Positions 20,510 to 48,821 of a stretch of DNA of 64,000 nucleotides are shown here, in pieces; position 1 is the stretch's first letter, and each line of letters begins with the position of its first letter. Below the pieces are notes generated by a model that saw only the letters and a list, made by a program, of their open reading frames with translations, made no database searches and was not told where the DNA came from. The stretch comes from Gammaproteobacteria bacterium (GTDB taxonomy: Bacteria; Pseudomonadota; Gammaproteobacteria; SZUA-229), in contig JABDRN010000061.1 of assembly GCA_013041745.1 (NCBI GenBank), positions 2,975 through 66,974 of the forward strand, written 5' to 3'. A program made the translations under genes and the position numbers.

Positions 20510-20519
20510 CTATTCGTAT

Positions 20520-21206: not shown

Positions 21207-21224
21207 TGCCTATAATGGAAAGGC

Positions 21225-21944: not shown

Positions 21945-21987
21945 AAAAAAACCTCTTTGCTTAGTTTAGAGTTACTGGTCGGCTCAT

Positions 21988-22818: not shown

Positions 22819-22846
22819 GATCGTATCTATTTGTTAGTTATCTGTA

Positions 22847-24526
22847 TTAATTATCGAGCGCACGGTATTTCTCACGCAGCCTGTTCCTCAGGTTTATCGC
22901 GGTCAGGTTGAGAGTAACGATAACGACTACCAGCAGGAAAGAGGTTGCATAGACCAGTGGCCGAGCAGCTTCGACATTTGGGCTCTGGAAGCCGACATCA
23001 TAGATGTGGAACCCGAGGTGCATGAATTTACGGTCAAGGTGCAGGAAAGGGAAGTTGCCGTCGAGTGGCAGGCTTGGAGCCAGCTTGACAACACCGACCA
23101 GCATCAATGGCGCGACTTCTCCAGCGGCCCTGGCAACTGCCAGGATTAACCCGGTCATGATGGCTGGGCTGGCCATCGGCAGCACGACCCGCCAGAGAGT
23201 CTCAACCTTGGTCGCGCCAAGGCCGAGGCTGCCTTCGCGTAAACTTCTCGGGATGCGTGACAGACCCTCTTCAGTGGCGACGATGACGACTGGTAATGTC
23301 AGCAGCGCCAGGGTTAACGATGACCACATCAGACCCGGCGTGCCAAATGTTGGCGCCGGCTGTGCTTCAGGGTAAAACAATGCATCGATATTGCCACCGA
23401 GGAAGTATACAAAGAAGCCCAGGCCAAAAACCCCGTATACGATCGAGGGTACACCCGCGAGGTTGTTAACCGCGATACGTATGATGCGTATCAATACGCC
23501 TTGTCTGGCATATTCTCGAAGGTAGACAGCTGCGATAACGCCAAACGGTGTCACCAGGATGGCCATCAGTATTACCATCAGCACGGTACCGAATATCGCC
23601 GGGAAGATACCGCCTTCGGTGTTGGCTTCACGAGGATCCTCTGAAACAAAGCTCCATAATGTGTAAGCATAAAACCCCAGCTTGTTCGGTATCGACATCT
23701 TGTTCGGTTGCCAGGCTTTGACGATCTTTTCCAGCGGAACGGTCACTTCACTGCCATCCATCACCGTGGCACGTATCGAGTCACGGTTGATATCCTGGTA
23801 GAGAACTCTTGTCTCTTTGAGCAGGGCATCGTATTCCAGTTTTAGTTCTTCACGCTTTTCTGCTAACTCCCCGGCGGCTTCATCGCTTAACTCATCATCG
23901 AGCTGCAGACGCTTCTCCCTCAGGCGCAGACGCTCCAGCTTGTAGTTAATCGCACCGATTTCGACCTGCTCCAGGTGCAATATCCTCTCTCTTATATCGA
24001 TGGTCCGGCGCAGCCGCTCACTAAACTCTTGCCATGCCTCCGCACCACTGGCGACCAGCGTGTCGCCTTCGTAGACCGAATTGAGGTAACCGTAAAAGTT
24101 TCCCCATTCGATACGTTCCAGGACCATGATCTCTTCGGGCTGTTCACGTTTTACCAGGTCGATATCATATAACCATCTGAAGTCACTGCCGAGGATGTCG
24201 CGGTTACCGGTCTTCACCAGGTAGCGTTCGATATTACCTTCAGCATCGCCTCCAGTATTGGCTATACCGTGAAGTGATTCAGCGGGTACGATTTCTGATT
24301 CTACGATCTCAGCGATGACGGTTAACGAGTTACTGTCGTTCTCATAATAGAATGCCTCTACATTCGCTGGCCAGAAATGACTCATGCCGCGAAACAGGAT
24401 CAATAACAATAGACCAAATACGGCGACCAGGGCGATAGCGATGGCACCGGCATTCATCCAGATCCAGGGTGTTCCGCTCTTGAACCATGCGGTTGCTTTT
24501 TTGCTGATCCCGGGTTGCTGAATCAT
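22847..24526 (-). CDS. pstA: phosphate ABC transporter permease PstA (long form)
   Basis: 559 aa with an N-terminal TM, a large periplasmic insert and the permease core (EGSLGLGATKVETLWRVVLP). Confidence 0.9.
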   Translation of the reverse strand: MIQQPGISKKATAWFKSGTPWIWMNAGAIAIALVAVFGLLLLILFRGMSHFWPANVEAFYYENDSNSLTVIAEIVESEIVPAESLHGIANTGGDAEGNIERYLVKTGNRDILGSDFRWLYDIDLVKREQPEEIMVLERIEWGNFYGYLNSVYEGDTLVASGAEAWQEFSERLRRTIDIRERILHLEQVEIGAINYKLERLRLREKRLQLDDELSDEAAGELAEKREELKLEYDALLKETRVLYQDINRDSIRATVMDGSEVTVPLEKIVKAWQPNKMSIPNKLGFYAYTLWSFVSEDPREANTEGGIFPAIFGTVLMVILMAILVTPFGVIAAVYLREYARQGVLIRIIRIAVNNLAGVPSIVYGVFGLGFFVYFLGGNIDALFYPEAQPAPTFGTPGLMWSSLTLALLTLPVVIVATEEGLSRIPRSLREGSLGLGATKVETLWRVVLPMASPAIMTGLILAVARAAGEVAPLMLVGVVKLAPSLPLDGNFPFLHLDRKFMHLGFHIYDVGFQSPNVEAARPLVYATSFLLVVVIVTLNLTAINLRNRLREKYRALDN

Positions 24527-30933: not shown

Positions 30934-31551
30934 CTATTGATTATCGCTGCCCCATATCTCCTGCAAACGTTGATCACGTCCGCATGCGAAGCGGTAATAT
31001 TGATAGCGTAAGGGATTCTTCTGATAATAATCCTGATGGTAATCTTCTGCTGGATAAAAAGTACTGGCTGGTAGAATTTCAGTGGCGATCTCGTCCTTGA
31101 ACGGTTTGTTACTGTTTAGCTCCTGCAGTGATCTTTCGATCTCAGCCTGCTGCTTCTCATCGAGATAATAGATGCCCGAGCGGTACTGGGAACCGGCATC
31201 ACAGAACTGGCGGTCGACAGCAACCGGGTCGATATTTTTCCAGAAGACATCCAGCAGTTCCGAATAGGTGATTTTCCCCGGGTCATATATGATCTCTATG
31301 GCTTCGGTATGGCCGGTGCTGCCAGCGGAAACTTCTTTATAAGTCGGGTTTTTTTTATGTCCCGCAGTATAGCCTGAGGTCGTTGAGATAACGCCGTCAA
31401 GTTTGTCGAACGGTGGCTCCATGCACCAGAAACAACCACCTGCAAAAATTGCGCTCTCAGTTTTTTGTGGCTTAGACGTTATTGCTCCCTGTTCAGATGC
31501 GAAAACGTGCGTTGTGAACAGGCTAAGTAAAAACAGTGTGACTAGTTTCAT
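30934..31551 (-). CDS. msrA: peptide-methionine (S)-S-oxide reductase, exported form
   Basis: Signal peptide followed by the GGCFWCME active-site motif. Confidence 0.9.
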   Translation of the reverse strand: MKLVTLFLLSLFTTHVFASEQGAITSKPQKTESAIFAGGCFWCMEPPFDKLDGVISTTSGYTAGHKKNPTYKEVSAGSTGHTEAIEIIYDPGKITYSELLDVFWKNIDPVAVDRQFCDAGSQYRSGIYYLDEKQQAEIERSLQELNSNKPFKDEIATEILPASTFYPAEDYHQDYYQKNPLRYQYYRFACGRDQRLQEIWGSDNQ

Positions 31552-33071: not shown

Positions 33072-33175
33072 ATGAGACTCTCTCTGTTTAACATCGTATC
33101 AGTTAACATCAGTTAGCAGGATACTGCCTTGATCAGCATCAAATTATGTTTCGACTTGCTTCTATGGTTGCTTTA

Positions 33176-34837
<1,662 letters not shown>

Positions 34838-35027: not shown

Positions 35028-35474
35028 TCAGTTGTCCATCAGCACACGCTCATCATATTCTGTTTCGAAGAATAGCTTGTGTTTTGCTTCCTCTTTGGCA
35101 AGGCCTTCTAACACTTCTTTGAGGTGGCTTTCCGGTACTTTAGCGGCCATGTCAGAGTAGAGCTTATGGGCAGCACGTTCTTTTTTCATGGCGATGATCA
35201 GTGCGTCCTGGTAGGTGATGTTATCGCTTGCCTCGACTTCCACCAGATAGTCCGAGATCTTCAGGTCCAGTACTTCCTGCTCGGGTGAGAGTTCGTGCTC
35301 GCCGGCCTTGACGTCGATCAGGATTTTCTTATGGCGTTTTTCTTCTTTAGAAAAATCCAGCAGTATCTTTTTCATGCCGGCTGTCTCGGCGCGTTGTGCA
35401 ACGTCTTCGTAAAAATCAGCTGCCTGTTGTTCCTGATCTATCGCGTAGTCCAGTATTTCATCAACGGTATTCAT
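35028..35474 (-). CDS. rubrerythrin/ferritin-like diiron four-helix-bundle protein
   Basis: Two ExxH motifs (EEKRH, EEAKH) with paired upstream Glu residues. There is no rubredoxin domain. It lies 31 nt downstream of the preceding gene. Confidence 0.6.
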   Translation of the reverse strand: MNTVDEILDYAIDQEQQAADFYEDVAQRAETAGMKKILLDFSKEEKRHKKILIDVKAGEHELSPEQEVLDLKISDYLVEVEASDNITYQDALIIAMKKERAAHKLYSDMAAKVPESHLKEVLEGLAKEEAKHKLFFETEYDERVLMDN

Positions 35475-35505
35475 AGTACTTCACCTGTGCTCAATCAATC
35501 TGTTG

Positions 35506-37299
35506 CTATTTCTCTTCATATGCCGCGGGATTCAGATAACGGTCGATACCGCGTGCCGCATGGTGGCCATCTTCGATGGCGCTGATCGCATCAGCCGTGC
35601 TGTTGGCAAAATCACCGCCGACAAACACCTTTTCCAGCGTCGTGTGCTGGTATTCGCCCGGGGTAAATTTCCCCCATTCGATGGCAAATTCCTCATGCAT
35701 CTCTTTTGAGATGTAATCGAGATTACTGCCCTGACCGATCGCTGATATTATGCTGTCATATGTATCCGTGTGCATACGATCTTCCTGCAGCACCGGCCGC
35801 GGTCTGCCGCCTTTGGGGTCATCGACCATCTCGGCTTCTCCCCAGCGGATAGCGACCTGTTGCTCGCTGTCCGCACTCACTATCTCGACCGGTATCGCCT
35901 GCTGTACGATGCGGCAGCCTTCTTCCTGTGATTCATGGATCTCTTCTTCATCGGCCGGCATCTCACTGATGCGGCGGCGATACAGTATAGTGACTTCTGC
36001 ATCGAAACGACGTGATACACGTGCGGCATCCATGGCGACGTTACCACCGCCGATGACGGCTACTTTTTTACCTATGCCCGGGTCACGGCCATTAGCGACA
36101 TCAGCGAGTACCTGCAGACCGGATAAGACGCGTGGATGGTCTTCACCGTGAATGCGCATACTCGATGGCACCGATAGACCAGTAGACATGAATACCGCAT
36201 CATAGTTCTCCAGCAGCTGTTCAAATTTTATATCCTTGCCGATAGCGGTATTGTATTTGATTTCGACACCAAGTGAGACGATATAGTCGATATCCTTGTC
36301 CAGGTCGTTATCGGGCAGGCGATAACTCGGTACGCCATAGCGCAACATGCCGCCGGCAGATTCCTGTGCTTCGAATACGGTGACAGCATAACCTTTCTTA
36401 CGCAGGTAGTAGGCGGCACTCATGCCGCCGGGACCGGCACCGATGACAGCGATCTTTTTACCGTTTTCCGTTATCGTGTCAGCGAGGATACGCTGGTAGT
36501 CACTGGCGTCCACCTGGTCGACGATGAGACGTTTCAGCCAGCGAATGGCGACCGGCTCACCGAGTATGCCGACCGGGCATACCGATTCGCAGCGGCGAGT
36601 ACAGATCCGCCCGCAGGTCGCCGGGAAGGGGTTGGTGCGGTACATCAGCTGCAGGCCTTTTTCGTAGTTGCCGTCACGGATGCTGTGAATATAATCCGGT
36701 ACATCCATATGTGCCGGACAGGTAGCGACACAGATGCCGCATTCGACACAGCGGTCGGCTTCCTTTTTGGCCTGTTCTTCGCTGTAGCCTTTGACGACTT
36801 CTTCGAATGAGCTCACGCTTTCATTAGCAGGCAGCATCTCCATCTCGATGCGTTTGGGCGGATACAGGTGATAACCTTCAGCACGGCGATAACCATTTTC
36901 ATTGTCCTGCCAGGGTTTATCATCAACGCCGGCGGTGAAATGAAATACGGTCGGGTCTTCACTGATCCAGGCGTATTCGTTGCTCATGCGCAGTGAGGCA
37001 GCGGTACAGATGTCGACACATAATCCACACCAGCAGCAGCGGCCATAATCAAAACGCGGGCGCAGTCCGCTGTCGCCTTCACGACCCAGGTATTCTTCGA
37101 CCGCCACCATGTCGATGGCGTGGTTCTGGCAGATCTCGTGACAGCTGCCGCAGCCGACGCAGGTATCGGCGATGTTGATATGAAAACCGCGGTAAGCCGG
37201 TGCGCCAGGACGATCGATCGTTGGCCTTATCGAGGTGTATGGTTTTTCGAAGGCACGCTGCCAGACGAAGAAAGGTGAGAGCAGGTCTTTCAGGTTCAT
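35506..37299 (-). CDS. fusion of a NuoI/MbxN-like 2x[4Fe-4S] ferredoxin domain and a GltD/SudA-type NAD(P)H-dependent FAD oxidoreductase
   Basis: Residues about 40-115 carry CVGCGSCHEIC and CCWCGLCVDIC (NuoI-type). They are followed by RCVECGICVATCP...CGRICTRRCESVCP, IAVIGAGPGGMSAA (FAD) and VAVIGGGNVAMDAA (NADPH), as in glutamate synthase small-subunit-like proteins. Confidence 0.8.
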   Translation of the reverse strand: MNLKDLLSPFFVWQRAFEKPYTSIRPTIDRPGAPAYRGFHINIADTCVGCGSCHEICQNHAIDMVAVEEYLGREGDSGLRPRFDYGRCCWCGLCVDICTAASLRMSNEYAWISEDPTVFHFTAGVDDKPWQDNENGYRRAEGYHLYPPKRIEMEMLPANESVSSFEEVVKGYSEEQAKKEADRCVECGICVATCPAHMDVPDYIHSIRDGNYEKGLQLMYRTNPFPATCGRICTRRCESVCPVGILGEPVAIRWLKRLIVDQVDASDYQRILADTITENGKKIAVIGAGPGGMSAAYYLRKKGYAVTVFEAQESAGGMLRYGVPSYRLPDNDLDKDIDYIVSLGVEIKYNTAIGKDIKFEQLLENYDAVFMSTGLSVPSSMRIHGEDHPRVLSGLQVLADVANGRDPGIGKKVAVIGGGNVAMDAARVSRRFDAEVTILYRRRISEMPADEEEIHESQEEGCRIVQQAIPVEIVSADSEQQVAIRWGEAEMVDDPKGGRPRPVLQEDRMHTDTYDSIISAIGQGSNLDYISKEMHEEFAIEWGKFTPGEYQHTTLEKVFVGGDFANSTADAISAIEDGHHAARGIDRYLNPAAYEEK

Positions 37300-37313
37300 G
37301 ATATTTTCTCCGT

Positions 37314-38513
37314 CTACCTCTCGATCTCTGGCGGGTAAGTATGCAGCGATACCATCATGCCTGCGATATCAGCGATATTGTTGCCGACTGCGAGGCGCTC
37401 CATCACGGCGATGGCATGCGTATAACTCGGTCCGCGTACATGCACACGACGTACGAGTTCCGAACCATCGGTGACCATATAGTAACCATATTCACCACGG
37501 GTACACTCGGCTTTGACATAAGTTTCACCGGCAGGTACTTTCCAGTGTAATACATTGGGCATATCGGCCTGGAAGGCGCCATCCATCGGCATACGGTCTA
37601 GGCACTGGCGAATCAGGCTGATGCATTGCCTTGTTTCCTGTAGACGCAGGTAGGCACGTTCATAAGCATCTGAATCTGTACCGGTGACGATATCGAAGTC
37701 CAGTTGATCGTAGGCCAGATAAGGTTCATCTTTACGCAGGTCGCGTTTGACGCCACAGGCGCGTGCGTTAGGGCCGACGATACCGTAGGGATCGATCATT
37801 TCAGGCGGGATAATGGCGAGGCCTTTCGAGCGTGCTTTGAAAACGGTATTGTTAAACATCACACGTTCGATCTGATCGAGCAGTTTCTCAGCACCGTCCA
37901 TGATCTCTCGGGCACGACCCTCGAAACCATCGGGCAGGCCGGCACGTACGCCGCCGGGTACTATGTACATGTGGTAGATGCGGGCACCGGTCATTTCTTC
38001 GAACAGGTCGAGTACGTAGTCGCGATAGGCCAGTGTCCAGTTAGCGACGGTGTACTGGCCGAAGGCGCCGCCCTGGCCGCCGATCCACATCAGGAAACTG
38101 GCGAGGCGCATCATCTCGAGGTTCATGGTGCGCAGCCAGGTGGCACGCTCTGGTATCTCGATACCGCTGATTTCTTCTACCGCATGCGAGTACAGATATT
38201 CGTTGAATGTCGGTTCGGGTACCGCGATACGGCACACCACGGTAAAGTTCTGGATGAAGCTGCGGCGTTCCATCAGTTTTTCGAAACCGCGGTGCAGGTA
38301 GCCGACATGGGTCTTGCAGTCGATGATGGTGTCGCCGTCGAGCGTCAGCTCCAGTGACATGTTGCCGGTGATGCCCGGGTGCTGCGGTCCCTGCCACAGT
38401 TTGACGTATTTTCCTGAAGCCAGGTCGACAGGTTCGGGCTGGGCAAAATCCAGCGAGGCGGAGTGACCTGTTGAAATGGGGCTGCTGGTGGTACGGCCAA
38501 ATGGCAGTTTCAT
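37314..38513 (-). CDS. NuoD / group-4 hydrogenase large-subunit homologue lacking NiFe ligands
   Basis: GPQHPG..., HVGYLHRGFEKL, RIYHMYIVPGGVR and VHVRGPSY are NuoD/MbhL-like blocks. The N-terminal site reads VVCRIAVPE and the C-terminus reads HTYPPEIER instead of the Cys motifs. Confidence 0.8.
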   Translation of the reverse strand: MKLPFGRTTSSPISTGHSASLDFAQPEPVDLASGKYVKLWQGPQHPGITGNMSLELTLDGDTIIDCKTHVGYLHRGFEKLMERRSFIQNFTVVCRIAVPEPTFNEYLYSHAVEEISGIEIPERATWLRTMNLEMMRLASFLMWIGGQGGAFGQYTVANWTLAYRDYVLDLFEEMTGARIYHMYIVPGGVRAGLPDGFEGRAREIMDGAEKLLDQIERVMFNNTVFKARSKGLAIIPPEMIDPYGIVGPNARACGVKRDLRKDEPYLAYDQLDFDIVTGTDSDAYERAYLRLQETRQCISLIRQCLDRMPMDGAFQADMPNVLHWKVPAGETYVKAECTRGEYGYYMVTDGSELVRRVHVRGPSYTHAIAVMERLAVGNNIADIAGMMVSLHTYPPEIER

Positions 38514-39052
38514 TTCTCGTCCCCCCCGCGGTTTGGATACAGCTCTACTTTCATGTGGTCACGCGGCTCTTCGCTGTGCCGGCCTTCACGGTGGCCGAAA
38601 CGTTGCTCGCTGAATTCCTTGGTATCGAACTCGCGGCGCATCGGCGGTATATCGTCCCAGCCTTCCAGGCAGAAGTCTTCCTCGAGACGCGGACTGCCGG
38701 GGAAATTGATGCCGTACATCTCACGCAGTTCACGCTGGTAGGTCCATGCCTGTGCCCACAGCGTATGGATGGAGACCATGTCTTCATTCTCGCGGCTGAT
38801 ATCGACATGTACGCCCAGCGAGAGTTTTTTATCGTAGTTGTGCAGCATGTAGACCAGGGTGAAGATGCCGTCTTCGATATAGTCGATGCAGGTCATGAAA
38901 TTGAGGTGCGTGTAACCTTCACGGTCGCGCAGTTCACGGATCAGTGTCTCGGCGCTGTCTTTTTTGACCCTGAACGTCGTCAGCGCAGGTTTGCGCACGG
39001 TGATGTCATCGACACCAAAGTCACGCTGCAGTCTTTCCATCAAATCATTCAT
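38510..39052 (-). CDS. NuoC (30 kDa subunit)-like protein
   Basis: 180 aa; ...TCIDYIEDG...VYMLHN...IHTLWAQAWTYQRELREMYGINFPGSP is typical of the NuoC/MbhK family. There is a 4-nt overlap with the NuoD-like gene. Confidence 0.8.
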   Translation of the reverse strand: MNDLMERLQRDFGVDDITVRKPALTTFRVKKDSAETLIRELRDREGYTHLNFMTCIDYIEDGIFTLVYMLHNYDKKLSLGVHVDISRENEDMVSIHTLWAQAWTYQRELREMYGINFPGSPRLEEDFCLEGWDDIPPMRREFDTKEFSEQRFGHREGRHSEEPRDHMKVELYPNRGGDEK

Positions 39053-39098
39053 AGTTTCACTTATCGATTACCTGTTGCCCATTAGCAGCCAAATTCTG

Positions 39099-39731
39099 TT
39101 ACCAGTTATAGTCGGGCATATCCCAGTTCTTGATGACCTTCTTCTGGTTGGCCTTGTACCAGTCAAAGTTTTCTACATAACGGTTGGCGCCATCACATTC
39201 ACCCGCCTTGATCTTCTTCTGCAATGCCATGATGCTTGCAACCAGTGCTTCCGGGCGAGGCATACAACCAGTTGCGTAAAGATCGACCGGGATATACTGG
39301 TCGAACTGGTTGATGGTGTTGTAGCTGTCGAAATACATGCCGCCATTGATCGGGCAGATGCCGAGGCAGATGACGAACTTGGGTCCCTGCATCTGTTCAT
39401 AGCTACGGATGATGCGCTTCAGGGTTTTTACCGAGGCATAGCCGCCGATAATGAATACCGATGACTGTCTCGGGGTCGGCCGTCCGGCAACGCCGAAACG
39501 GTTGGCATCGAAGCGGGCCGTCATCAGTGGTCGCAGTTCGATGGCGCCGCAGCCGGTACCGAAGGCAAGGATCCATAAGGAATTGGCTCTTGCCCAGTTC
39601 GCAAAATCTTCTACCGCTTTAATAGGGTAAGGTTCATAGGCTCTTGGGCGAGCATTACTGAACAGCAACTGTTCCTCTTCCGTTAGACCAGAATTTTCCA
39701 GTGTGTCATCAGTGTTGAGACTATTTTTCAT
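39099..39731 (-). CDS. NuoB / hydrogenase small-subunit-like [4Fe-4S] protein
   Basis: SLWILAFGTGCGAIE, PRQSSVFIIGG, FVICLGICPINGGMY and VDLYATGCMPRPEAL are NuoB-family blocks. Confidence 0.85.
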   Translation of the reverse strand: MKNSLNTDDTLENSGLTEEEQLLFSNARPRAYEPYPIKAVEDFANWARANSLWILAFGTGCGAIELRPLMTARFDANRFGVAGRPTPRQSSVFIIGGYASVKTLKRIIRSYEQMQGPKFVICLGICPINGGMYFDSYNTINQFDQYIPVDLYATGCMPRPEALVASIMALQKKIKAGECDGANRYVENFDWYKANQKKVIKNWDMPDYNW

Positions 39732-39743
39732 ATTCAGTCCTCG

Positions 39744-40682
39744 TTAAGCAGTCAGCAGCATCTGTGCGTATATTATCGACATCACCCCGATAAGGGTCGG
39801 GATTTTAAAGAAGAAGCGAATCGCCTGATCGACCCTGAAGCGCGGGAAGGCAACACCGACGATGATCGCGACCATATAGATCAGGAAGGTTTTTATCATC
39901 AGTTCGCCCCAGCCGGTGGCTCCGCCGAAGAACAAGTTCATAAACAGTATCAGCTTGGTAGCACCGAACAGCGCACGGTTGGTCTGCAGTAGTGATAGAT
40001 AGGCGCTGTGGAATTCTGTCGGTGGACCGATAGGGATCTCCTGCGGCGCCAGGAAAATATCAAACGGTGAATAGCCAGTCATGCCGAGTAATGCCAGCAT
40101 CGCGGCCAGCGTGGCCACCCAGTTGGTGATCACTGTCCAGTTCTGCCAGCCACCTTGCTGGGCAGCGACGATCTCGGTGAGCGACAGAGTGTCGTACTGG
40201 ATGACGATGGAGATTACCGCCAGTGCAAACGGTACTTCATAGGCGGTCATCTGCGACAGGCCGCGGGCGATACCGATGGCGCTATAGGGGTGTCCGCTTT
40301 CACCGGCGCCCAGCGCCATACCCAGCTGGCCGAAAAACATGAAATAGATCACCAGGAACAGGTCACCGGCGGTGCTGAAATTGGAGAACATCTCATTGCC
40401 GTAGATAACCGGTATGAAAGCCAGTGTACCTATGCCGCCGGCGATACGAAAAACCGGGCCGAGGTAGAACATGATGCCGTGGCTGATAGCGGTACGTTTG
40501 AAGAAGTTCTTCAGAATATTAATGAACGGCTGTGAGTAGGGGATGCCGATACGGCCCTGGACCTTGGCGATGATACGCTCGATCAATGCCCCGACGAAAA
40601 GCCCGTAGATGGTTACTATCAATAAAGTAAGAGAAAAATAGCCGGCTTTGGACAGCCATTCGTTCATGCTATCGAAGATCAC
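39744..40682 (-). CDS. NuoH / MbhM-like membrane subunit
   Basis: 312 aa, polytopic; ERIIAKVQGRIGIPY and SPFDIFLAPQEI correspond to conserved NuoH loops. Confidence 0.8.
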   Translation of the reverse strand: MIFDSMNEWLSKAGYFSLTLLIVTIYGLFVGALIERIIAKVQGRIGIPYSQPFINILKNFFKRTAISHGIMFYLGPVFRIAGGIGTLAFIPVIYGNEMFSNFSTAGDLFLVIYFMFFGQLGMALGAGESGHPYSAIGIARGLSQMTAYEVPFALAVISIVIQYDTLSLTEIVAAQQGGWQNWTVITNWVATLAAMLALLGMTGYSPFDIFLAPQEIPIGPPTEFHSAYLSLLQTNRALFGATKLILFMNLFFGGATGWGELMIKTFLIYMVAIIVGVAFPRFRVDQAIRFFFKIPTLIGVMSIIYAQMLLTA

Positions 40683-43600
40683 AGCGCGAGTCCTCCATTT
40701 AACAGGAACATGGCAACAAAATACATGACAACGAATAGTGCATAGGTTTGACCGTTACCGTTATAGAAAATGCGCAGTGAAGAAGCCGTCGTGTGGCTCC
40801 ATTCGACTATAGTGTTCCAGAATGCGGTCGCCCTCGGTCTGACCAGGAAGCCGATAGCGCGGTCGTAATGCGCAAAAAAGTTATAGGCATAATGCGTTTC
40901 TTCAGGACGGCGTGGACGTTCAGCCGCGAACACGATATTGAACTGTTCGACTTTCTGGATCTTCAAGGTCAGTGAGATCAGCAGCAGCAGTATCAGCGGC
41001 ACCATCCAGACACCGCCGACCACGCCCATGATCATCGGTGCATTCCAGTAGCCGAAGTTTGTCACCATGGCGGTACCTTCCCACACCAGGGTATTAGCGA
41101 TCCACGGATCGATGGCGGCTGACAGCGGATCAAGCAGCAGTTTCGGATAGGCCGAGACCACCATGATGCAGGCGATCATCACACCCTGCGGGATTAGCAG
41201 GATGGCCGGGGCCTCGCGTAACTCGTGATGTTCGAGTTTGCGCTGACCGAGGAATACCGTCTGCAACAGGCGGAACATATAGAGGAATGCGATCGCGCTG
41301 GAGAAGAACGCCAGTGCCGCGATCCAGTACCAGCCCTTGTCCATCAGCGCGTTGAACATCATCCACTTACCGCCATAACCGGTCAGTGGTGGTACCCCGG
41401 ACATGGCGATGATCGCGATCATGGTAAAGGTGAAAGTGAAAGGCATGTTCTTGATCAGGCCGCCCATCTTATACATCAGGCGCTGGTTGGTGCGCAGGAT
41501 GATGCCAGCGGCCGATAGCAGCAAGATACCTTTGAACAGGAAGTGGTTGACCGTCATATACATCGCAGAGACCCAGCCGAGGTGGCTCATCAGTGCGACG
41601 CCGGTGACGATATAACCCAGCTGTCCCATGCTGGAGTAGGCGAGCAGGCGTTTCAGATCTTCCTGGAACACGGCCATCAGTGCACCGAAGGTGGCGGTGA
41701 GGATGCCTATCCAGCCGAGCACATAGGCCGGATCGAGGCCGATATCAGAACGTACACCGAGCTGGGCGGCGATGATGACCAGGCCGAAGACGCCAGCCTT
41801 GCTGACCACTGAAGAAAGCAGCGCGGTAAAGTCATCATCCGCTTCAGCATAGGCATCGGGCAACCAGATGTGAAAACCGAAGCCGCCCATCTTGATGATG
41901 AAACCAGCGGCCAGCAGGCTGAATATCATGGTCATCGACTCACCGCTATTACCAAGGCTGGATAGCAGCAGGCTGCCGGTCGCACCGTATGCGACGGCAA
42001 AGCCTGCGAAGATGAGATAGGCTGAACCGAGTGAGAACAGCAGGTAGCTCAGTGCTGGTTTCGCACCATCACGCCCGAGTGTAATCAGTAGATAAGAGCT
42101 CAGTGTCATCAGTTCCCAGCTGAAGAAAAATTCCAGCGAAGATTGCGCACGCAGCAGGGTCGCCAGTGACAGTAGCAGTACGGCGAGCAGCGGGTAGAAA
42201 CCTTTACGGTCATCTTTGCGGTACAGCGCCGCGATACTGACCAGCAGTCCGCCGCCGATCAGAAGGTAACTGAACAGACTGTTGATGCCGTCGAGGTCTT
42301 TTGTCAGCAGATAGCCGCCGATTGCTACCGCAACCAGCATCGGCAGGTTCTTGTAGCGACCGTGCACACCATCGATCAGCCAGAGTGCAAAGCCGGCGAC
42401 CAGCGGCAGATATAATTCGGGACTGGCGACCTGCATGACTGCTGCCATGACGTAACTGGTGGCAAACAATAAAAGTACTGCGATGGCGACCGGTAGCGGC
42501 TGCCAGAAACTAACGGGTATCTCGGCCTGCTCATCATCAGCTACTGATTGCTGTGCATAGCTGAACCAGCGGAACAGGTAAGCTGCCTCCAGTAATGAAC
42601 CGAGCAGGATAAGGCTGATCCAGCCAAACATATCGTTGCTGGCAAGCAGCATTACCAGCTCCCATTTCGCCCAGAAACCGGGAAATGGCGGCAAGCCGAC
42701 AAGTGCTGTCATCATGATGCCGAGCAGCAATAACATGCCACGGCGCTTGCTGATAACCGACCAGCCACGGATACTGCTGCTTTTGACCAGTCCTGCCAGC
42801 CAGAACAGCCCGGCCTTGGCGAACAGGTGATTAACAAAAAGGCCACCGACGATGAGATACATCTGGGACTGTATGTCTACTTGTGAATCGAGTTGTGCCA
42901 GTAATGCCATCGCCAGTGTCAGCAGCCCAATCTGGCCAATGGATGAATAACCCAGCAGGCGCTTTGTATTGTCCTGTTTCAGACCGATGATGTTGGAAAA
43001 CAGGAAAGTGAGGCCGCCGATGAACGCGATGCTATGCAGGAAATCACCCGCCAGAGGTAACAGTTTATAGACGGCAAAGAACATGCCTGCCGAAACGCCG
43101 ACCGAGATCAGCGAGGCGATACCCGTAGACGCCGTTTCGTAGACATCAAGCCCCCAGCCATTGGCAGGGTAAGGTTTAAGCTCGATGAGCAGGCCGGTGA
43201 GCACGAAAAGTGTTGCGATAAAGCCGATCGGACCGCTGATCAGTTCCTGGTTGGCGATGATGTCATCGATGTTTAATGTACCTGTCTGGTAGTAGATGAA
43301 TATGGTGCCGAGCAGGAAGAATGCGGATGCGATCGAGGTCGCGACGATGTATTTGAAACCTGCGGCCAGTACACTGCCGGAACGCTCCATGCCGATCAGC
43401 GCATAGGTTGCTATCGAAGTGATCTCGATAAAGATAAACAGGTTGAACAGGTCGCGGGTCATCACCATGCCATTGATGCCCATCACCAGTATCAGGTAGA
43501 GCAGCAGGGCAGAAGCGTGTTCTTTTAATCGAGGCAGGTAATGCCATGCACCCAGCAGAGCTGCGGTATTGACCGCGAGTACGATACCGCCTTCGAGCAG

Positions 43601-43855
43601 GCCGAAGCGCAAGTTGATAGAAAACGGCGGCTTGATGCCCGCGGTCTCGATATCGATAGCAGTTGCACCATTGATGATTCCAAACAGGTTGAAGCCGGCG
43701 ATCCCTACCATACAGGCCAGGGCCAGCAGGAACACCAGGATTGCAGAACCGCGATGTGCCCGGTCGAATAATGGGATCAGGAAGCCTGCACCCAGTGCCA
43801 GTACATAGATGCCTAAAGGATGCAGCAGTAGGTCTGTTATGGTCGCTGTTACCAT
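40679..43855 (-). CDS. fused tandem MrpD/NuoL-N-like antiporter subunits
   Basis: About 1058 aa with two successive proton-antiporter modules, roughly residues 1-480 and 490-1000. The ATG at 43855 overlaps the MrpC stop (ATGGTAA). The track start at 43870 is a GTG. Confidence 0.8.
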   Translation of the reverse strand: MVTATITDLLLHPLGIYVLALGAGFLIPLFDRAHRGSAILVFLLALACMVGIAGFNLFGIINGATAIDIETAGIKPPFSINLRFGLLEGGIVLAVNTAALLGAWHYLPRLKEHASALLLYLILVMGINGMVMTRDLFNLFIFIEITSIATYALIGMERSGSVLAAGFKYIVATSIASAFFLLGTIFIYYQTGTLNIDDIIANQELISGPIGFIATLFVLTGLLIELKPYPANGWGLDVYETASTGIASLISVGVSAGMFFAVYKLLPLAGDFLHSIAFIGGLTFLFSNIIGLKQDNTKRLLGYSSIGQIGLLTLAMALLAQLDSQVDIQSQMYLIVGGLFVNHLFAKAGLFWLAGLVKSSSIRGWSVISKRRGMLLLLGIMMTALVGLPPFPGFWAKWELVMLLASNDMFGWISLILLGSLLEAAYLFRWFSYAQQSVADDEQAEIPVSFWQPLPVAIAVLLLFATSYVMAAVMQVASPELYLPLVAGFALWLIDGVHGRYKNLPMLVAVAIGGYLLTKDLDGINSLFSYLLIGGGLLVSIAALYRKDDRKGFYPLLAVLLLSLATLLRAQSSLEFFFSWELMTLSSYLLITLGRDGAKPALSYLLFSLGSAYLIFAGFAVAYGATGSLLLSSLGNSGESMTMIFSLLAAGFIIKMGGFGFHIWLPDAYAEADDDFTALLSSVVSKAGVFGLVIIAAQLGVRSDIGLDPAYVLGWIGILTATFGALMAVFQEDLKRLLAYSSMGQLGYIVTGVALMSHLGWVSAMYMTVNHFLFKGILLLSAAGIILRTNQRLMYKMGGLIKNMPFTFTFTMIAIIAMSGVPPLTGYGGKWMMFNALMDKGWYWIAALAFFSSAIAFLYMFRLLQTVFLGQRKLEHHELREAPAILLIPQGVMIACIMVVSAYPKLLLDPLSAAIDPWIANTLVWEGTAMVTNFGYWNAPMIMGVVGGVWMVPLILLLLISLTLKIQKVEQFNIVFAAERPRRPEETHYAYNFFAHYDRAIGFLVRPRATAFWNTIVEWSHTTASSLRIFYNGNGQTYALFVVMYFVAMFLLNGGLAL

Positions 43856-44229
43856 TTCGACTCCGTGCACTCATCGATATTCAGCGTGTTACGTGCTTTA
43901 AATATACGCACCGCAAACGCTAGCATGACTGCGGTTACACCGAGACCGATGACGATTGCGGTGAGTACCAGCGCGGAAGGCACCGGGTCGACAACCCTGT
44001 TAACGGCATCGGCGATCGGCACCGCATCATTGATGATCGGAGCTGTACCGCCGGTGACATAGCCGATAGAGACCATGACCATGTGGATGCCGGTATCCAT
44101 CAATGAAAAACCGATGATCATACGGATTATGTTGCGCTGCGTCAGCATGCCCCACATGCCGATCAAAATCAGGCCAAGGCCGCTGCACAGCACGATGAGT
44201 GATATCGGGATGTCAGTGAGCATGTTCAT
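43849..44229 (-). CDS. MrpC/MnhC (NuoK-like) subunit
   Basis: 126 aa with three TM segments; GMLTQRNIIRMIIGFSLMDTG is typical of MnhC. Confidence 0.8.
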   Translation of the reverse strand: MNMLTDIPISLIVLCSGLGLILIGMWGMLTQRNIIRMIIGFSLMDTGIHMVMVSIGYVTGGTAPIINDAVPIADAVNRVVDPVPSALVLTAIVIGLGVTAVMLAFAVRIFKARNTLNIDECTESKW

Positions 44230-44969
44230 ACCGGGCCGGTGTCCTCCTTGCGGAAACGGTCGAGTACCGCACTGAGTTCAAATCCTACCTTGAGGCCGAC
44301 GAAGAGGTAGATCAATGGTATCGCTCCGGCACTGAACAGGCTGCCGTAAGTGCCGAGGTCCATGATACGGTTGTCGAGGAAACCGCCCGCGAGAAAGACA
44401 CCGAGTACGCCGACGACGACATAGCTGAAACCGGACATGGATTCGGTGATGGCGATCATCAGGCGACTGATATGTGATTCAGGCAGTGCGAGCAGCAGGA
44501 ACATGGTGCCGGAAGCGATGATCGCACCGCCCTGAAAACCACCGCCGGGTGACAGGTGGCCGTTCATGAATACGTATACACCGAACAGGACTACCATCGG
44601 CAGCAGCAGTTCGGTCGCTGTTTCGACGATCTCGCTGGCGGGTTTGTGTACGCCCGCTGTCTCTTCTGCACGGTCTCCCTGTTCCAGGCCTTTGTCATCA
44701 TCCTGGTTGCGTCGGGTGCGGCGTAGCAGCAAGCCGACACCGGCAGCTGAGATGAATAGTACGGTCACCTCACCCAGTGTATCCAGACCACGGTAGGTGA
44801 CGACGACCGCGGTGACCAGGTTGGGCGCACCCAGTTCCTGCGGACCTTTGTCAGCATAGTAGTGGCCGAGCTTGGACAGCGTCGTGTTCTCGGTATAGTT
44901 GGCGACGAGGTTGAAAAAGATCATCGCCATAAGAGCCAGCATTGCAAAAATGAAGATCCGTTTGATCAT
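44226..44969 (-). CDS. MrpB/MnhB-domain membrane subunit
   Basis: NLVTAVVVTYRGLDTLGEVTVLF is the MnhB motif. It is followed by a charged loop and extra TM segments. Confidence 0.7.
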   Translation of the reverse strand: MIKRIFIFAMLALMAMIFFNLVANYTENTTLSKLGHYYADKGPQELGAPNLVTAVVVTYRGLDTLGEVTVLFISAAGVGLLLRRTRRNQDDDKGLEQGDRAEETAGVHKPASEIVETATELLLPMVVLFGVYVFMNGHLSPGGGFQGGAIIASGTMFLLLALPESHISRLMIAITESMSGFSYVVVGVLGVFLAGGFLDNRIMDLGTYGSLFSAGAIPLIYLFVGLKVGFELSAVLDRFRKEDTGPV

Positions 44970-45349
44970 TTTGCCGGTACCCCGTTGCTTTCTTCTGCCG
45001 TATCCTTATCGGTTTCATTCTCCTCGGCTCTGCCAAGCTGATCGATGACCGTAGTTTCGGTTTCAAAAATGCCGATAGAGTGTGCTGCGCGTGCCAGTGC
45101 ATGTGAGGACACCGGATTGGTCAGCATGACGAAGAATATCAGGATGATCAGTTTCAAGGTCCAGGCCGGGTGTAGAAAAGCCAGTCCGATAAGGACCATG
45201 ATAGTTCCCAGCGTCGTCGCTTTGGTACCGGTCTGGATTCGGTTATAGGTATCTGGCATACGCAATACACCGAGCCCGGCCGAGAACAGGAACAGAGAGC
45301 CGATGATGAGAAAAAGGTTGCCGATGATTTCGCTGAGAAGATGGGTCAT
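44966..45349 (-). CDS. MrpG/MnhG subunit
   Basis: IGSLFLFSAGLGVLRMPDTYNRIQTGTKATTLG is the MnhG signature. Confidence 0.8.
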   Translation of the reverse strand: MTHLLSEIIGNLFLIIGSLFLFSAGLGVLRMPDTYNRIQTGTKATTLGTIMVLIGLAFLHPAWTLKLIILIFFVMLTNPVSSHALARAAHSIGIFETETTVIDQLGRAEENETDKDTAEESNGVPAK

Positions 45350-45612
45350 TCGTCATCCTCGCTTTCAAGCTTTTGCGTCTTGCGGATGGCGTAGAGAAAA
45401 ATCATGGTGGTGAGACCAGAACCGATAGACGCCTCGGTCATCGCCACATCAGGTGCCGCCAGCACGACATAGACCACGGATGCGAACAGGCTGGCGAGAC
45501 CGGCACTGACCACTGCGCTGACCATATTATTCAGCATCACGGCGAGCAGTCCACTGATGAGGATGCCTGCGCAAAGCACGACAGTAAGTAATGTGATGAC
45601 GAGTGATGACAT
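45346..45612 (-). CDS. MbhD-like (DUF4040) small membrane subunit
   Basis: 88 aa counted from the ATG at 45612. The track's longer start at 45696 would overlap mrpF by 77 nt. It has three TM segments with APDVAMTEASIGSGLTT. Confidence 0.55.
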   Translation of the reverse strand: MSSLVITLLTVVLCAGILISGLLAVMLNNMVSAVVSAGLASLFASVVYVVLAAPDVAMTEASIGSGLTTMIFLYAIRKTQKLESEDDE

Positions 45613-45619
45613 GAGCAGA

Positions 45620-45895
45620 TCAGATTCCTTTTTCCAGGTAACGGGCGACAGCGAGTACTCCGAGAAAACTGAGCAAACCGTAAACCAGCGCGACATCGAG
45701 GTAGATGAAGCGCTCAGCCTGGTGTGCCAGCAGTGCTATCAACGCGATCGTAACGATGGTCAACAGGTCGATCGCAACCACCCGGTCAACGGTATCGGGG
45801 CCGATCACCAGGCGAACGATACCGAACACGATGCTGAAAAATATCAGCACGGAAGAGATGATTATGGTTATTTCTGTCATTCCAAAATCAGTCAT
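45620..45895 (-). CDS. MrpF/MnhF subunit
   Basis: 91 aa; RLVIGPDTVDRVVAIDLL...YLDVALVYGLLSFLGVLAVARYLE. Confidence 0.75.
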   Translation of the reverse strand: MTDFGMTEITIIISSVLIFFSIVFGIVRLVIGPDTVDRVVAIDLLTIVTIALIALLAHQAERFIYLDVALVYGLLSFLGVLAVARYLEKGI

Positions 45896-45912
45896 CGCTG
45901 CTCATTCCCAGG

Positions 45913-46422
45913 TTATCCATATATCACCTTGAGGATTTTTTCGAAACGAGCGGAGATGGCCTCGGTTGCGGCAACCGGGTCAGTCGCAGCTATGTTTATC
46001 CAGTGGATGAACAGCGAGTCATCTTTGATATCAACGACCAGCGTGCCCGGTGTCAAGGTAATACTGTTGGCCAGAGCCAAGCGGCCCATAGGTGATTTAA
46101 GCTCGGTCTTGATCTCGACGATTCCCGGCCTGATATCGATGCGTGGTGAGAACACCAGACGCATGACGTTAAGATTAGCCTTTATCAGTTCGATGAAGAA
46201 TACAGCGAGGTACACCAGGTAATGATAGATAACGGTCGGTGACCAGCGGATCACACGGTACACCCTGGCGAAGGTGGAAAATGCCAGCGCGATAACAGCG
46301 CTGACTACGACACCTGTTATCACGGTATCTGAAGCTAGCGAGCCATTGGCTATCAGCCAGATGAGCAGCAGCGTCAACCAGAGGTTGATGAACTGTAATG
46401 GAATGTTCTTGGTACCCGGCAT
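45913..46422 (-). CDS. MrpE/MnhE subunit
   Basis: 169 aa; ELIKANLNVMRLVFSPRIDIRPGIV...LANSITLTPGTLVVD is typical of MnhE. Confidence 0.75.
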   Translation of the reverse strand: MPGTKNIPLQFINLWLTLLLIWLIANGSLASDTVITGVVVSAVIALAFSTFARVYRVIRWSPTVIYHYLVYLAVFFIELIKANLNVMRLVFSPRIDIRPGIVEIKTELKSPMGRLALANSITLTPGTLVVDIKDDSLFIHWINIAATDPVAATEAISARFEKILKVIYG

Positions 46423-46519: not shown

Positions 46520-46533
46520 TTGACCTGAATCAA
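46520..46533. promoter_or_regulatory. near-consensus FNR-type box (TTGAC-N4-ATCAA) upstream of the Mrp/complex-I-like operon
   Basis: ttgacctgaatcaa has one mismatch to TTGAT-N4-ATCAA. A TATAAG -10-like hexamer on the minus strand (46500-46495) would place the site centre near -40. Confidence 0.3.
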
Positions 46534-46823
46534 TTCACCCGTTGCCGCTGCGGTCAATTTCATAACAGACTGTATTAAATAGTACAGAAAATGCACCACG
46601 ATCAGTCACAGTGACCCTGTTTAGTGCGAAAATCATTCATTCTTCAGGCATTAAATGTACTTTGTTTAAACAGTTCAATTGTCGTGCCAGCTTTGCATCA
46701 TAACAGCTTCTGCTGCTTTCGCTGTTAAAAAATATAGCTAATTAACATGTGGCTTAATCTTTGCTTGAATGTAATATACAGAGGAAAAGATTCCTGAAAA
46801 CCATCACCAAGAGAAACTGAACT

Positions 46824-48275
46824 ATGGAAAAGGCAGATATCGGGCTTATCGGACTTGCAGTAATGGGGCAAAACCTTGTGCTGAATATGGCAGACCACGG
46901 CTATCGCGTGGCTGTATTCAACCGCACCACCAGCAAGGTCGACGAATTCATCGAGGGCCCGGCAAAAGGTACAAGCATTATTGGTACGCACAGCATGGAA
47001 GAACTTGTGGCATCACTGGCTACACCACGTAAAGTCATGCTGATGGTAAAGGCGGGTGAGGTCGTCGACCGTTTCATCGATATGCTGCTGCCATTACTGG
47101 AGCCGGGCGATGTTATTATCGATGGCGGCAATTCTCATTATCCTGATTCGACGCGACGTACCACCTACCTGAGGGAGAAAGGCCTGCGTTTTATCGGAAC
47201 CGGGGTTTCCGGTGGTGAAGAAGGTGCGCGTCATGGGCCATCCATCATGCCCGGCGGTGATGCTGATGCCTGGCCGCTGGTAAAAGATATCTTCCAGGCG
47301 GTATCAGCAAAAGTTGATGGCGAACCGTGCTGCCAGTGGGTAGGGCAGGATGGTGCCGGGCATTTCGTGAAGATGGTGCATAACGGTATCGAATATGGCG
47401 ATATGCAGCTCATCTGCGAAGCCTATTCATTGATGGAGAATGCGCTCGGCATGAGCTGTGATGAGATGCATGAAGTATTCAAAGAGTGGAATAGCGGCGT
47501 CCTCGACTCATACCTGATCGATATCACCAAAGATATCCTCGCCATGAAAGATGAAGACGGCGAACCGCTGGTCGATAAGATACTCGATACAGCCGGCCAG
47601 AAAGGTACCGGCAAATGGACCGGTATCAGCGCGCTCGATCTCGGTGTACCGCTGACGCTGATCGGCGAATCGGTGTTTGCACGAGTGCTGTCATCACTAA
47701 AAGATGAGCGTGTTCGTGCTTCTGCAATACTTGGCCCACGACCTGATATCTCTTTCAGCGGCAGCCGTGATGAGATCATAGAGGCGCTTCGTGATGCGCT
47801 GTATGCATCCAAGATCATCTCCTATGCACAGGGCTTTATGCTGATGCGAGAAGCTGCTAAGGAGATGGCCTGGGATCTGAATTACGGTGAGATCGCACTG
47901 ATGTGGCGCGGTGGCTGTATCATACGCAGCACCTTCCTCGGCAATATAAAAGATGCCTATGAGAAGGACCCTGGGCTGGAAAACCTGGCGCTGGACTCCT
48001 TCTTCAGCGAAGCGCTTAAATCTGCAGAAGCGGGCTGGCGAAAAGCCGTGGTGCTGGCGGTAGAGAACGGTATTCCGGCACCGGCATTTTCATCGGCATT
48101 ATCCTATTTCGATGGCTACCGCAGTGAGCGCCTGCCGGCGAACCTGTTACAGGCACAGCGCGACTACTTCGGTGCGCATACATACGAGCGTCTGGATGCA
48201 GCGCGAGGCGAGTTCTTCCACACAGACTGGACCGGCCATGGCGGCAAAGTTGCTTCGACGACTTATGAGGTGTAA
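46824..48275 (+). CDS. gnd: 6-phosphogluconate dehydrogenase (decarboxylating)
   Basis: [22 protein letters not shown], the full-length 483 aa and many conserved Gnd blocks (e.g. [14 protein letters not shown]). Confidence 0.95.
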
Positions 48276-48807: not shown

Positions 48808-48821
48808 TTGATAATTATCAA
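48808..48821. promoter_or_regulatory. perfect FNR/CRP-family box TTGAT-N4-ATCAA upstream of the DsrC/TusE-like gene
   Basis: ttgataattatcaa. A TATAGT -10-like hexamer on the minus strand (48782-48777) places the box centre roughly 42-45 nt upstream of a plausible start site. Confidence 0.4.

Follow-up and report, generated by a model that had tools for sequence, protein, structure and literature searches.

To our knowledge, no characterised enzyme other than the complex MBS of Pyrococcus furiosus reduces sulfur at a bare iron-sulfur cluster, and until now MBS was archaeal, hyperthermophilic and driven by ferredoxin. It is composed of MbsA-G, H, H', M, J, K, L and N, and was formerly known as Mbx until it was reassigned to a sulfane reductase in 2018-2020 (PMC7684303). 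Here we analysed a stretch of 64,000 nt (the window) of Gammaproteobacteria bacterium (SZUA-229; assembly GCA_013041745.1, contig JABDRN010000061.1, positions 2,975-66,974), which carries an operon of the same family, with 13 densely packed open reading frames (ORFs) on the minus strand from 46422 to 35028. In this variant a built-in NADPH module would replace ferredoxin. The variant was found in mesophilic bacteria, including sulfur-oxidising symbionts, sediment bacteria, Spirochaetes, Cloacimonadota and Bacteroidota.

Related operons have been reported from several bacteria. An "mbx-like" layout in Thermotoga and proteobacteria, in which a gltD-type subunit replaces NuoI, was described by Degli Esposti in 2015; it contains an Mrp module and homologues of NuoH, NuoB, NuoC and NuoD, often ends with a rubrerythrin, and was proposed to conduct electrons from ferredoxin to NAD(P)+ (PMC4758237). 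In Thermotoga maritima, which has neither quinones nor cytochromes, mbxA of the 13-subunit MBX was up-regulated 4.4-fold with S0, and electron flow from ferredoxin to sulfur was proposed in 2022 (PMC9431562). A 'putative Mrp-Mbx complex', the function and direction of which were given as unknown, was reported in the Riftia symbiont Candidatus Endoriftia persephone. It was co-expressed with the reductive tricarboxylic acid (rTCA) cycle, the Hyd1e/3b hydrogenases and V-type ATPases, and not with the Calvin-Benson-Bassham (CBB) cycle, sulfide-oxidation genes, bc1, the cbb3 oxidase or the F1-ATPase (PMC11636981). The Thermotoga and proteobacterial operons, described by genome comparison and quantitative reverse transcription PCR only, have the same architecture as that in the window, and neither the 2015 nor the 2022 report considered NADPH as a donor to sulfur. 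The Riftia symbiont is likewise a sulfur-oxidising gammaproteobacterium; the identity of its complex with the window operon could not be confirmed. The complex was not mentioned in a study of Thiosymbion, and no biochemical or structural study of the GltD-fused type was found in the literature, with limited coverage of subscription journals.

An earlier interpretation of the window from its letters alone (the sequence-only reading) had implied that the architecture was novel. This did not stand in view of the three reports above, and it was further weakened by a scan of one genome per species for relatives of the NuoD-like protein, which gave at least 590 matching stretches. The best 80 loci of these were compared in detail. 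The window operon is a new member of an architecture already known from genomics and widespread; it adds a gammaproteobacterial case flanked by gnd and pgm. New here are the adjacency of gnd, zwf and pgm in three layouts and an upstream FNR-type box in sulfur-oxidising Gammaproteobacteria.

Kinship with the sulfane reductase of Pyrococcus furiosus

The core subunits were searched against all solved structures in the PDB, and it was found that MBS (6U8Y) ranked first for each of the five large core subunits and for the NuoI-like domain. The NuoD-like, or MbsL-like, subunit (399 aa, 37314-38513, Pfam Complex1_49kDa) scored 317.6 bits with MbsL (6u8y_L), compared with 228 bits with Nqo4, 148 bits with MbhL and 98 bits with HycE. 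The NuoB-like subunit, the MbsJ-like protein of the proximal [4Fe-4S] cluster (210 aa, 39099-39731, Pfam Oxidored_q6), scored 212.6 bits with MbsJ (6u8y_J) versus 133 with NdhK and 87 with MbhJ. For the NuoH-like membrane anchor (MbsM-like, 312 aa, 39744-40682, Pfam NADHdh 164.5 bits), the score with MbsM (6u8y_M) was 154.6 bits, and the next best match, NdhA, reached 60 bits. The double antiporter-like protein (1063 aa, 40679-43870, two Proton_antipo_M stretches, alternative ATG start at 43855) matched MbsH (6u8y_H) with its N-terminal half at 186 bits and MbsH' (6u8y_X) with its C-terminal half at 211 bits, versus 146 bits between the whole protein and MbhH. Residues 6-110 of the fusion protein described below matched MbsN (6u8y_N) at 63 bits.

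A neighbour-joining tree was made from the NuoD-like protein, its relatives from the other loci, about 135 cluster representatives, MbsL of P. furiosus and Nqo4 of Thermus thermophilus. The window protein fell into a bacterial clade beside P. furiosus MbsL, with which it shares the loop R-I-[C/A]-V-P-E-P. Together they adjoined the true group-4 hydrogenases with complete CxxC...CxxC motifs, and the window clade was distant from the NuoD sequences with the His...Asp-Tyr signature, including Nqo4. The NuoD-like homologues therefore branched neither inside Nuo nor inside a hydrogenase clade with intact ligands.

The remaining genes agreed with this placement. All 13 ORFs of the operon scored above the gathering cut-off of the predicted family in the Pfam profile search, so that the 13 minus-strand genes listed in the sequence-only reading were recovered with their families. 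The operon begins with a MrpE/MbsA-like gene (169 aa, 45913-46422, MNHE 133.7 bits), as in every full-length locus, followed by the MrpF/MbsB-like gene (91 aa, 45620-45895, MrpF_PhaF 66.5 bits) and the MbhD/MbsD-like gene (about 88 aa, 45346-45612, MbhD 66.2 bits). The longest ORF of the latter extends to 45696, with Pfam MbhD covering residues 44-108 of this long form; the true start is likely the ATG at 45612, 7 nt past the MrpF stop codon. The MrpG/MbsC-like (127 aa, 44966-45349, PhaG_MnhG_YufB 90.4 bits), MbhE+MnhB/MbsE-like (247 aa, 44226-44969, MbhE 41.3 bits and MnhB 79.3 bits) and MrpC/NuoK-like/MbsG-like genes (126 aa, 43849-44229, Oxidored_q2 85.3 bits) precede the double antiporter gene, and the MbsK/NuoC-like gene (180 aa, 38510-39052, Complex1_30kDa 85.4 bits) lies between those of the NuoB-like and NuoD-like subunits. 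Assuming the MbhD-like start at 45612, the genes overlap by 4 nt at five junctions and by 7 or 22 nt at one, and are otherwise separated by gaps of 7-46 nt. In a promoter and terminator scan of the operon, promoter-like sites were fewer than in shuffled sequences and the internal terminator-like sites were weak. The neighbourhood survey that the sequence-only reading had proposed showed the whole operon in the same order in all loci with sufficient flank, and because this order recurred in all full-length loci among the 80 from other genomes, the layout is not due to chance.

The order of the window operon is colinear with MbsA-B-C-D-E-G-H-H'-M-J-K-L-N of P. furiosus, and both have a Mrp-type Na+/H+ module. 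By their Pfam domains, the window genes provide the Mrp module, two antiporter-like subunits, MbsM and the MbsJ-K-L-N order. There are also differences. MbsH and MbsH' are one protein in the window, the order of MbhD and MrpG is swapped, an extra gene for a diiron protein is present, and the host is a mesophilic bacterium. MbsN is fused to an NfnB/GltD-type NADPH flavoprotein, whereas MBS takes its electrons from free ferredoxin. The MrpG-MbhD order in the window is also the reverse of that in the Spirochaete, Cloacimonadota and Bacteroidales operons. Group-4-like subunits without NiFe ligands, combined with Mrp antiporter-like subunits, also place the operon under the umbrella term energy-converting hydrogenase-related (Ehr). 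On its sequence, the operon can be regarded as a solid member of the MBS/Mbx-type family, Ehr in the broad sense, and the claim that it is a Mrp plus NuoHBCDI-like relative of group-4 hydrogenases colinear with Pyrococcus mbx/mbs was borne out.

Complex I (Nuo) and cyanobacterial NDH-1 share with the window operon a homologous Q-module (NuoB/C/D/I), the NuoH anchor and antiporter-like subunits, as well as the principle of redox-driven ion translocation. Unlike in complex I, the membrane arm encoded in the window is of the Mrp type, and the similarity scores to Nuo and NDH-1 are far lower. No genes of the NuoE/F/G N-module were detected within the operon by the Pfam search. A canonical complex I was rejected, as neither the ligand patterns nor the similarity scores fit.

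Residues of the predicted catalytic site and the probable electron acceptor

The proximal cluster of MBS is ligated by MbsJ C28, C93 and C123 only; C25 is too distant to bind because three residues of the MBH loop are missing in MBS, and S-S cleavage has been proposed to occur at the open iron (PMC7684303). It was observed that the equivalents of these three ligands in the NuoB-like subunit, C61, C126 and C156, were invariant in the window and 72 relatives (73 of 73), and that the position of C25 was Gly in all 73. The alignment with MbsJ was gapless across the cluster loop, which has the same length in both. This pattern predicts a proximal [4Fe-4S] cluster with three Cys ligands as in MBS. 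Cys122 of the window protein was also considered as a fourth ligand and was rejected, as it was Cys in only 6 of the 73 sequences.

The NuoD-like subunit was inspected for the ligands of a NiFe site. The motifs L1 (RxCGxC) and L2 (DPCxxC) were incomplete: the first Cys of L1 (C94) was left, and the others were Ala97, Leu390 and Tyr393. A true group-4 [NiFe]-hydrogenase was rejected because the complete motifs were missing, and the absence of NiFe ligands stated in the sequence-only reading was confirmed, apart from this one vestigial cysteine. C94 was invariant in 81 of 81 NuoD-like sequences and is Leu in MbsL. Cys337, in the motif E-C-T-R-G-E, was Cys in 62 sequences and Ser in 18; the motifs of C94 and C337 would line the former NiFe pocket. 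MbsL has vestigial cysteines of its own, C85 and C385, which are non-catalytic (PMC7684303). At the position of C85 the window has Ala (Ala in 45 sequences, Cys in 36), and at that of C385 it has Tyr, as do 78 of the 81 sequences. The vestigial cysteines thus differ between the two proteins, and the three-cysteine pattern of the proximal cluster, without a functional NiFe site and without quinone ligands, is common to both.

The sequence-only reading had left the acceptor as either sulfane sulfur or quinone. Sulfane sulfur is favoured by the invariant three-Cys cluster, and the quinone half of the proposal is disfavoured by the residues at the quinone site. For a non-canonical complex I, in which the GltD-type module would stand in for NuoEFG and NAD(P)H would reduce quinone within the chamber, it can be argued that Gammaproteobacteria possess quinones, that the chamber architecture is common with complex I, and that automatic annotation names the subunits NADH-quinone oxidoreductase. 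The opening of the MBS chamber is also wide enough for hydrophobic substrates (PMC7684303). Nevertheless, the equivalents of the Nqo4 quinone ligands H38 and Y87 were Thr49 and Val98, invariant in 81 of 81 NuoD-like sequences. The tandem-Cys, four-ligand N2 pattern of NuoB was absent, the first motif of the NuoB-like subunit holding a single Cys. Moreover, the family is frequent in hosts that are reported, or can be expected, to have no quinones, such as T. maritima, and the similarity of the subunits to MBS far exceeds that to Nuo or NDH-1. Quinone reduction was judged quite improbable.

The residues of the ion path were largely retained. E128, K217, K248 and K399 of MbsH' were kept in the fused antiporter as E586, K660, K691 and K835, and the charge-axis residues E138 and E219 of MbsH and E203, E211 and D196 of MbsM were conserved.

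The fused flavoprotein and the direction of electron flow

The fusion protein of the window (597 aa, 35506-37299, minus strand) combines a MbsN/NuoI-like domain at its N-terminus, with two Fer4 domains, and an NfnB/GltD-type part with Fer4_20 (100.4 bits) and Pyr_redox_2 (92.5 bits). The two parts were in a single ORF in 77 of 78 loci, in agreement with the claim of a covalent link between the ferredoxin-entry subunit and an NAD(P)H flavoprotein. In this respect the operon does not conform to MBS, which has a stand-alone MbsN and a free ferredoxin donor. Residues ~160-590 scored 270-297 bits with NfnB-type chains, namely StnC (8oh5), NfnABC, T. maritima NfnB (4ylf) and P. furiosus NfnI/SudA (5jca), versus 184 bits with GltD and 111 bits with DPD. 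The NCBIfam family NF010590, 'putative oxidoreductase', matched the fusion over its full length, and the score of 681 bits was under the family cut-off of 946. Like NfnB/SudA/StnC and GltD, the fusion has a Fer4_20 domain for two [4Fe-4S] clusters and Rossmann domains for FAD and NADPH; unlike them, it sits behind a NuoI/MbsN ferredoxin domain and is tied to a membrane complex. No gene for an NfnA or GltB partner was found within the operon or the conserved flanks.

Seventeen Cys were invariant across 78 fusions, which is enough for four clusters, two each in the MbsN-like and Fer4_20 parts; the eight Cys of the Fer4_20 part were all invariant and fit two [4Fe-4S] sites. The FAD motif GxGPGG was present in 77 of 77 fusion sequences, and the second Rossmann motif, GGGNVAMD...(I/V)LYRRR, was conserved in 72-74 of 75. 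In Rossmann folds, a basic YRR(R) without an acidic residue after beta-2 denotes a preference for NADPH over NADH. The nearest solved relatives of the module (NfnB, SudA and StnC) also bind NADPH. It is likely, judging from these motifs, that the electron donor is NADPH rather than NADH.

The kinship with NfnB-type ferredoxin-linked modules can also be read in favour of the original Mbx hypothesis, a Rnf-like ferredoxin:NAD(P)+ oxidoreductase, in which ferredoxin would be oxidised, NAD(P)+ reduced at the GltD-type module and ions pumped, and which in reverse would provide reduced ferredoxin for the rTCA cycle. This was proposed for the same architecture (PMC4758237), and the co-expression of the Endoriftia complex with the rTCA cycle, which requires reduced ferredoxin, is in line with it. 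However, the proposal is older than the reassignment of P. furiosus Mbx. Electrons flowing from ferredoxin to FAD would skip the proximal cluster and the chamber, yet both are strictly conserved, and no ferredoxin gene was found within or beside the operon. This role is considered improbable.

The observations above point to a reversible, ion-translocating NADPH:sulfane-sulfur oxidoreductase, which probably respires stored sulfur under anoxia with NADPH from glycogen; we put the probability of this reading at roughly one in two. The substrates, direction, ion coupling and role of the diiron protein that we infer for the complex are as follows. NADPH would transfer hydride to the FAD of the fused flavoprotein, and the electrons would proceed to the two [4Fe-4S] clusters of the Fer4_20 domain, from there to the two of the MbsN-like domain, and finally to the proximal three-cysteine [4Fe-4S] cluster of the MbsJ-like subunit. 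Because this cluster has only three Cys ligands, one iron would be available for binding a sulfane S-S bond and breaking it; the cleavage of polysulfide or persulfide would take place in the chamber that the MbsL-, MbsJ- and MbsM-like subunits form. The redox chemistry in the chamber would drive H+ or Na+ movement via the fused MbsH-MbsH' and the Mrp module, and the diiron protein would guard the exposed cluster against O2 or H2O2. In the window host, the favoured direction would be from NADPH to sulfane sulfur at anoxia or low oxygen; NADPH would be supplied from glycogen via pgm, zwf and gnd, and the stored sulfur respired.

From the standard potentials of NADPH (~-320 mV) and S0/H2S (~-270 mV), the yield was calculated to be ~10 kJ per 2 electrons. 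It would be larger at physiological ratios, and is comparable with that of MBH, which runs on only ~12 kJ per 2 electrons (PMC8165549). Forward pumping would therefore be feasible and reversal easy; since the two potentials are close, the reaction would be near equilibrium and reversible.

The genes around the operon bear on its direction. In the window, gnd for 6-phosphogluconate dehydrogenase (46824-48275, plus strand, Pfam 6PGD 445 bits) is divergent, 401 nt upstream, and pgm for phosphoglucomutase (33176-34813, minus strand, Pfam PGM_PMM I-III and PGM1 C-terminal domain) is 214 nt downstream. In addition to the window, 11 of the 17 full-length gammaproteobacterial loci have gnd, zwf or both in the flanks of the operon, and three layouts were distinguished. 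The window arrangement, with gnd divergent upstream and pgm downstream, was shared by L001, L006, L008 and L021; gnd-zwf lay directly upstream on the same strand in L015, L016, L017 and L020; and zwf-gnd was convergent downstream in L019 and L022. In L011, gnd was further downstream. Downstream pgm was found in five loci, namely L001, L006, L008 and L021 of the 17 and the shorter L002. None of gnd, zwf and pgm flanked the operon in any of the fermenter loci.

A box of the FNR/CRP family, TTGATTCAGGTCAA, is present at 46520-46533 on the minus strand, ~104 nt upstream of the mrpE start, as an exact consensus match only. Equivalent boxes were found at -101 to -128 in L001, L006, L021 and the more distant L018. 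Boxes of the type TTGAT-N4-RTCAA were enriched in the window, with 7 strand-matches at 4 sites versus 0.32 expected (background density 0.011 per kb). The other boxes are at 17429-17442 (~270 nt upstream of sat), 33129-33142 and 48808-48821; of the latter two, one precedes a DUF465 gene and the other follows gnd. As sequence matches, the four boxes suggest a shared low-oxygen or cyclic AMP-type regulon. Together with the gnd/zwf linkage, which is likewise correlative, the FNR-type box points to NADPH consumption at low oxygen. A sigma-54-like -24/-12 element, TGGCACGACAATTG, oriented to the operon, was also noticed at 46676-46689 on the minus strand and was kept in L001, L006 and L021 at -262 to -277 from mrpE; taken alone in the window, it was not significant (match in 42 of 100 shuffles).

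Whether the main role of the complex is the reverse was considered against the same data. In that case ion-motive force would drive electrons of sulfide or polysulfide at the three-cysteine cluster to NADP+, giving an autotroph NADPH for CO2 fixation while bypassing the quinone pool and complex I. Complex-I-type machines are reversible, the calculated couple lies near equilibrium, and the cofactors and ligand patterns suit either direction equally. The host, moreover, is a sulfur oxidiser, as the sequence-only reading had maintained, with aprA (11090-13075) and sat (15971-17161) present in the window. On the other hand, the linkage to gnd and zwf, which produce NADPH, and to pgm suits NADPH use better, the FNR-type box suggests induction at low oxygen, and the complex is frequent among fermenters that are not autotrophic (Spirochaetes, Cloacimonadota, Bacteroidales and Thermotoga). 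In the Riftia symbiont, expression of the complex goes along with that of the rTCA cycle and hydrogenases rather than with that of CBB or sulfide-oxidation genes. The reverse flow proposed earlier, in which ion-motive force serves NADP+ reduction, was thus found thermodynamically reasonable and not favoured by the gene linkage; as the main role it seems unlikely.

An autotrophic Beggiatoa respires stored sulfur at the expense of stored carbon, a process to which no enzyme has been assigned (PMC3253548). As a proposed NADPH:sulfane-sulfur oxidoreductase, the complex is a good candidate for the enzyme of stored-sulfur respiration of the Beggiatoa type. A more extended proposal is tentative and rather doubtful: that this is the enzyme by which sulfur-storing chemolithoautotrophs survive anoxia on their own sulfur, with NADPH from glycogen entering and the Mrp-type arm building an ion gradient, and that it could run backwards with sulfide as a direct source of NADPH, independent of quinone and present in many bacterial phyla.

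Several points weigh against electron flow from NADPH to sulfane sulfur. The driving force from NADPH is small, and net ion pumping may be marginal. The invariant C94 and the mostly kept C337 differ from MbsL, and the chemistry of the site may differ as well. In the charge axis, MbsM E193 and E104 are replaced by S and F, MbsH' H336 by M and, probably, MbsH K250 by A. The closest kin of the flavoprotein is the electron-bifurcating NfnB, and a simple NADPH dehydrogenase chemistry is an assumption here. The fusion was poorly modelled with a 39-sequence alignment (predicted local distance difference test score, pLDDT, 58.5; predicted template modelling score 0.44); fold matches of this model followed the ranking of the sequence (NfnB > GltD > DPD), and the AlphaFold model from the single sequence (pLDDT 33.6) was useless. 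The tree is a neighbour-joining tree with unlabelled cluster representatives and not a supported maximum-likelihood phylogeny. The fusion in the complexes of T. maritima and Endoriftia was not directly confirmed, the Thermotoga case resting on PMC4758237. Finally, a general NADPH-balancing role would also fit the gnd/zwf linkage, which is correlative.

Should the complex prove to be an energy-conserving NADPH:sulfane-sulfur oxidoreductase, three matters would find an explanation: the anoxic respiration of internal sulfur by sulfur-storing bacteria, the way in which many fermenters derive energy from sulfur, and the coupling of NADPH pools to sulfur chemistry. It would also represent a new input module for the complex I superfamily. 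The linkage to gnd, zwf and pgm and the FNR-type box yield concrete, testable predictions.

Distribution, the diiron protein and other features of the window

The best 80 loci were from Gammaproteobacteria, Spirochaetes, Cloacimonadota and Calditrichia. The gammaproteobacterial carriers comprised Thiotrichales, Chromatiaceae, Thiogranum, Thiosymbion, Thioalkalivibrio and metagenome-assembled genomes of Methylococcales, and the closest NuoD-like match among those listed, at 97% identity, was gammaproteobacterial. A second large subclade consisted of Bacteroidota and Ignavibacteria-like genomes. In the fermenter loci (Spirochaete and Cloacimonadota), the recurrent neighbours were small regulators instead of pentose-phosphate genes: an ArsR-type regulator right after the fusion gene, a TetR-type regulator upstream, and a CBS-domain protein (for example L052:3459-3818, L058:1400-1861 and L069:1654-2286). 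Just downstream of pgm, L006 (15681-17465) and a second gammaproteobacterial locus encode a NuoE/NuoF-like fusion protein of 594 aa with 2Fe-2S_thioredx, Complex1_51K and NADH_4Fe-4S domains.

The last gene of the window operon encodes a ferritin-fold diiron protein of 148 aa (35028-35474, minus strand, Pfam Rubrerythrin 50.1 bits). The ligands E15, E45, H48, E99, E129 and H132, forming an E, ExxH, E, ExxH site, were invariant in 39 of 39 sequences. The PDB matches were weak and to ferritin-like diiron proteins only. The name rubrerythrin-like was upheld in part: the Pfam family and the diiron ligands agree with it, and no rubredoxin-like FeCys4 domain was found in the protein, which has zero Cys. 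The gene was present in all complete gammaproteobacterial loci, as the last gene, and missing only from short or incomplete ones; in most non-gammaproteobacterial loci (Spirochaete, Cloacimonadota and Bacteroidales) it was weak or absent. In a Bacteroidales groundwater contig (L081) with the same operon, the fusion gene overlaps at its end with a DHO_dh-family (PyrD/PreA-like) gene, which replaces the diiron gene, and a Crp/Fnr-family regulator gene is divergent upstream (coordinates of the two side genes 1045-1734 and 13286-14263). The replacement indicates that the terminal gene of the operon varies with lineage.

The invariant diiron site and its constant place at the end of every complete gammaproteobacterial locus would also suit an NADPH-dependent detoxification of O2 or peroxide, in which the Fe-S chain would deliver electrons to the diiron protein as terminal reductase, ion-coupled or not; a methionine sulfoxide reductase gene is nearby (30934-31551). 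However, most Spirochaete, Cloacimonadota and Bacteroidales operons are otherwise identical and lack the gene, the protein has no rubredoxin domain to accept electrons, and a 12-subunit ion pump would be needless for peroxide removal. This function appears very improbable, and a shield of the exposed cluster from O2 or H2O2, as included in the scheme of NADPH-driven sulfane reduction above, is preferred.

The G+C content was 53-55% over 36000-46000, covering the operon, versus ~43-50% in most of the window, and the AT skew was strongly positive across the antiporter genes. This may reflect the codon content of membrane proteins or horizontal acquisition. Elsewhere in the window, a CxxCxxCC-domain gene was found at 9926-10876, near aprA and sat, and a pstS-phoR-pst transporter cluster at 18063-26721, in which the PstC- and PstA-like permeases are unusually long (732 and 559 aa). 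Two further large, conserved proteins are encoded at 54347-56533 (728 aa, with a weak glutamine-synthetase-like core) and at 60599-63973 (1124 aa, transglutaminase-like/DUF2126 'putative amidoligase').

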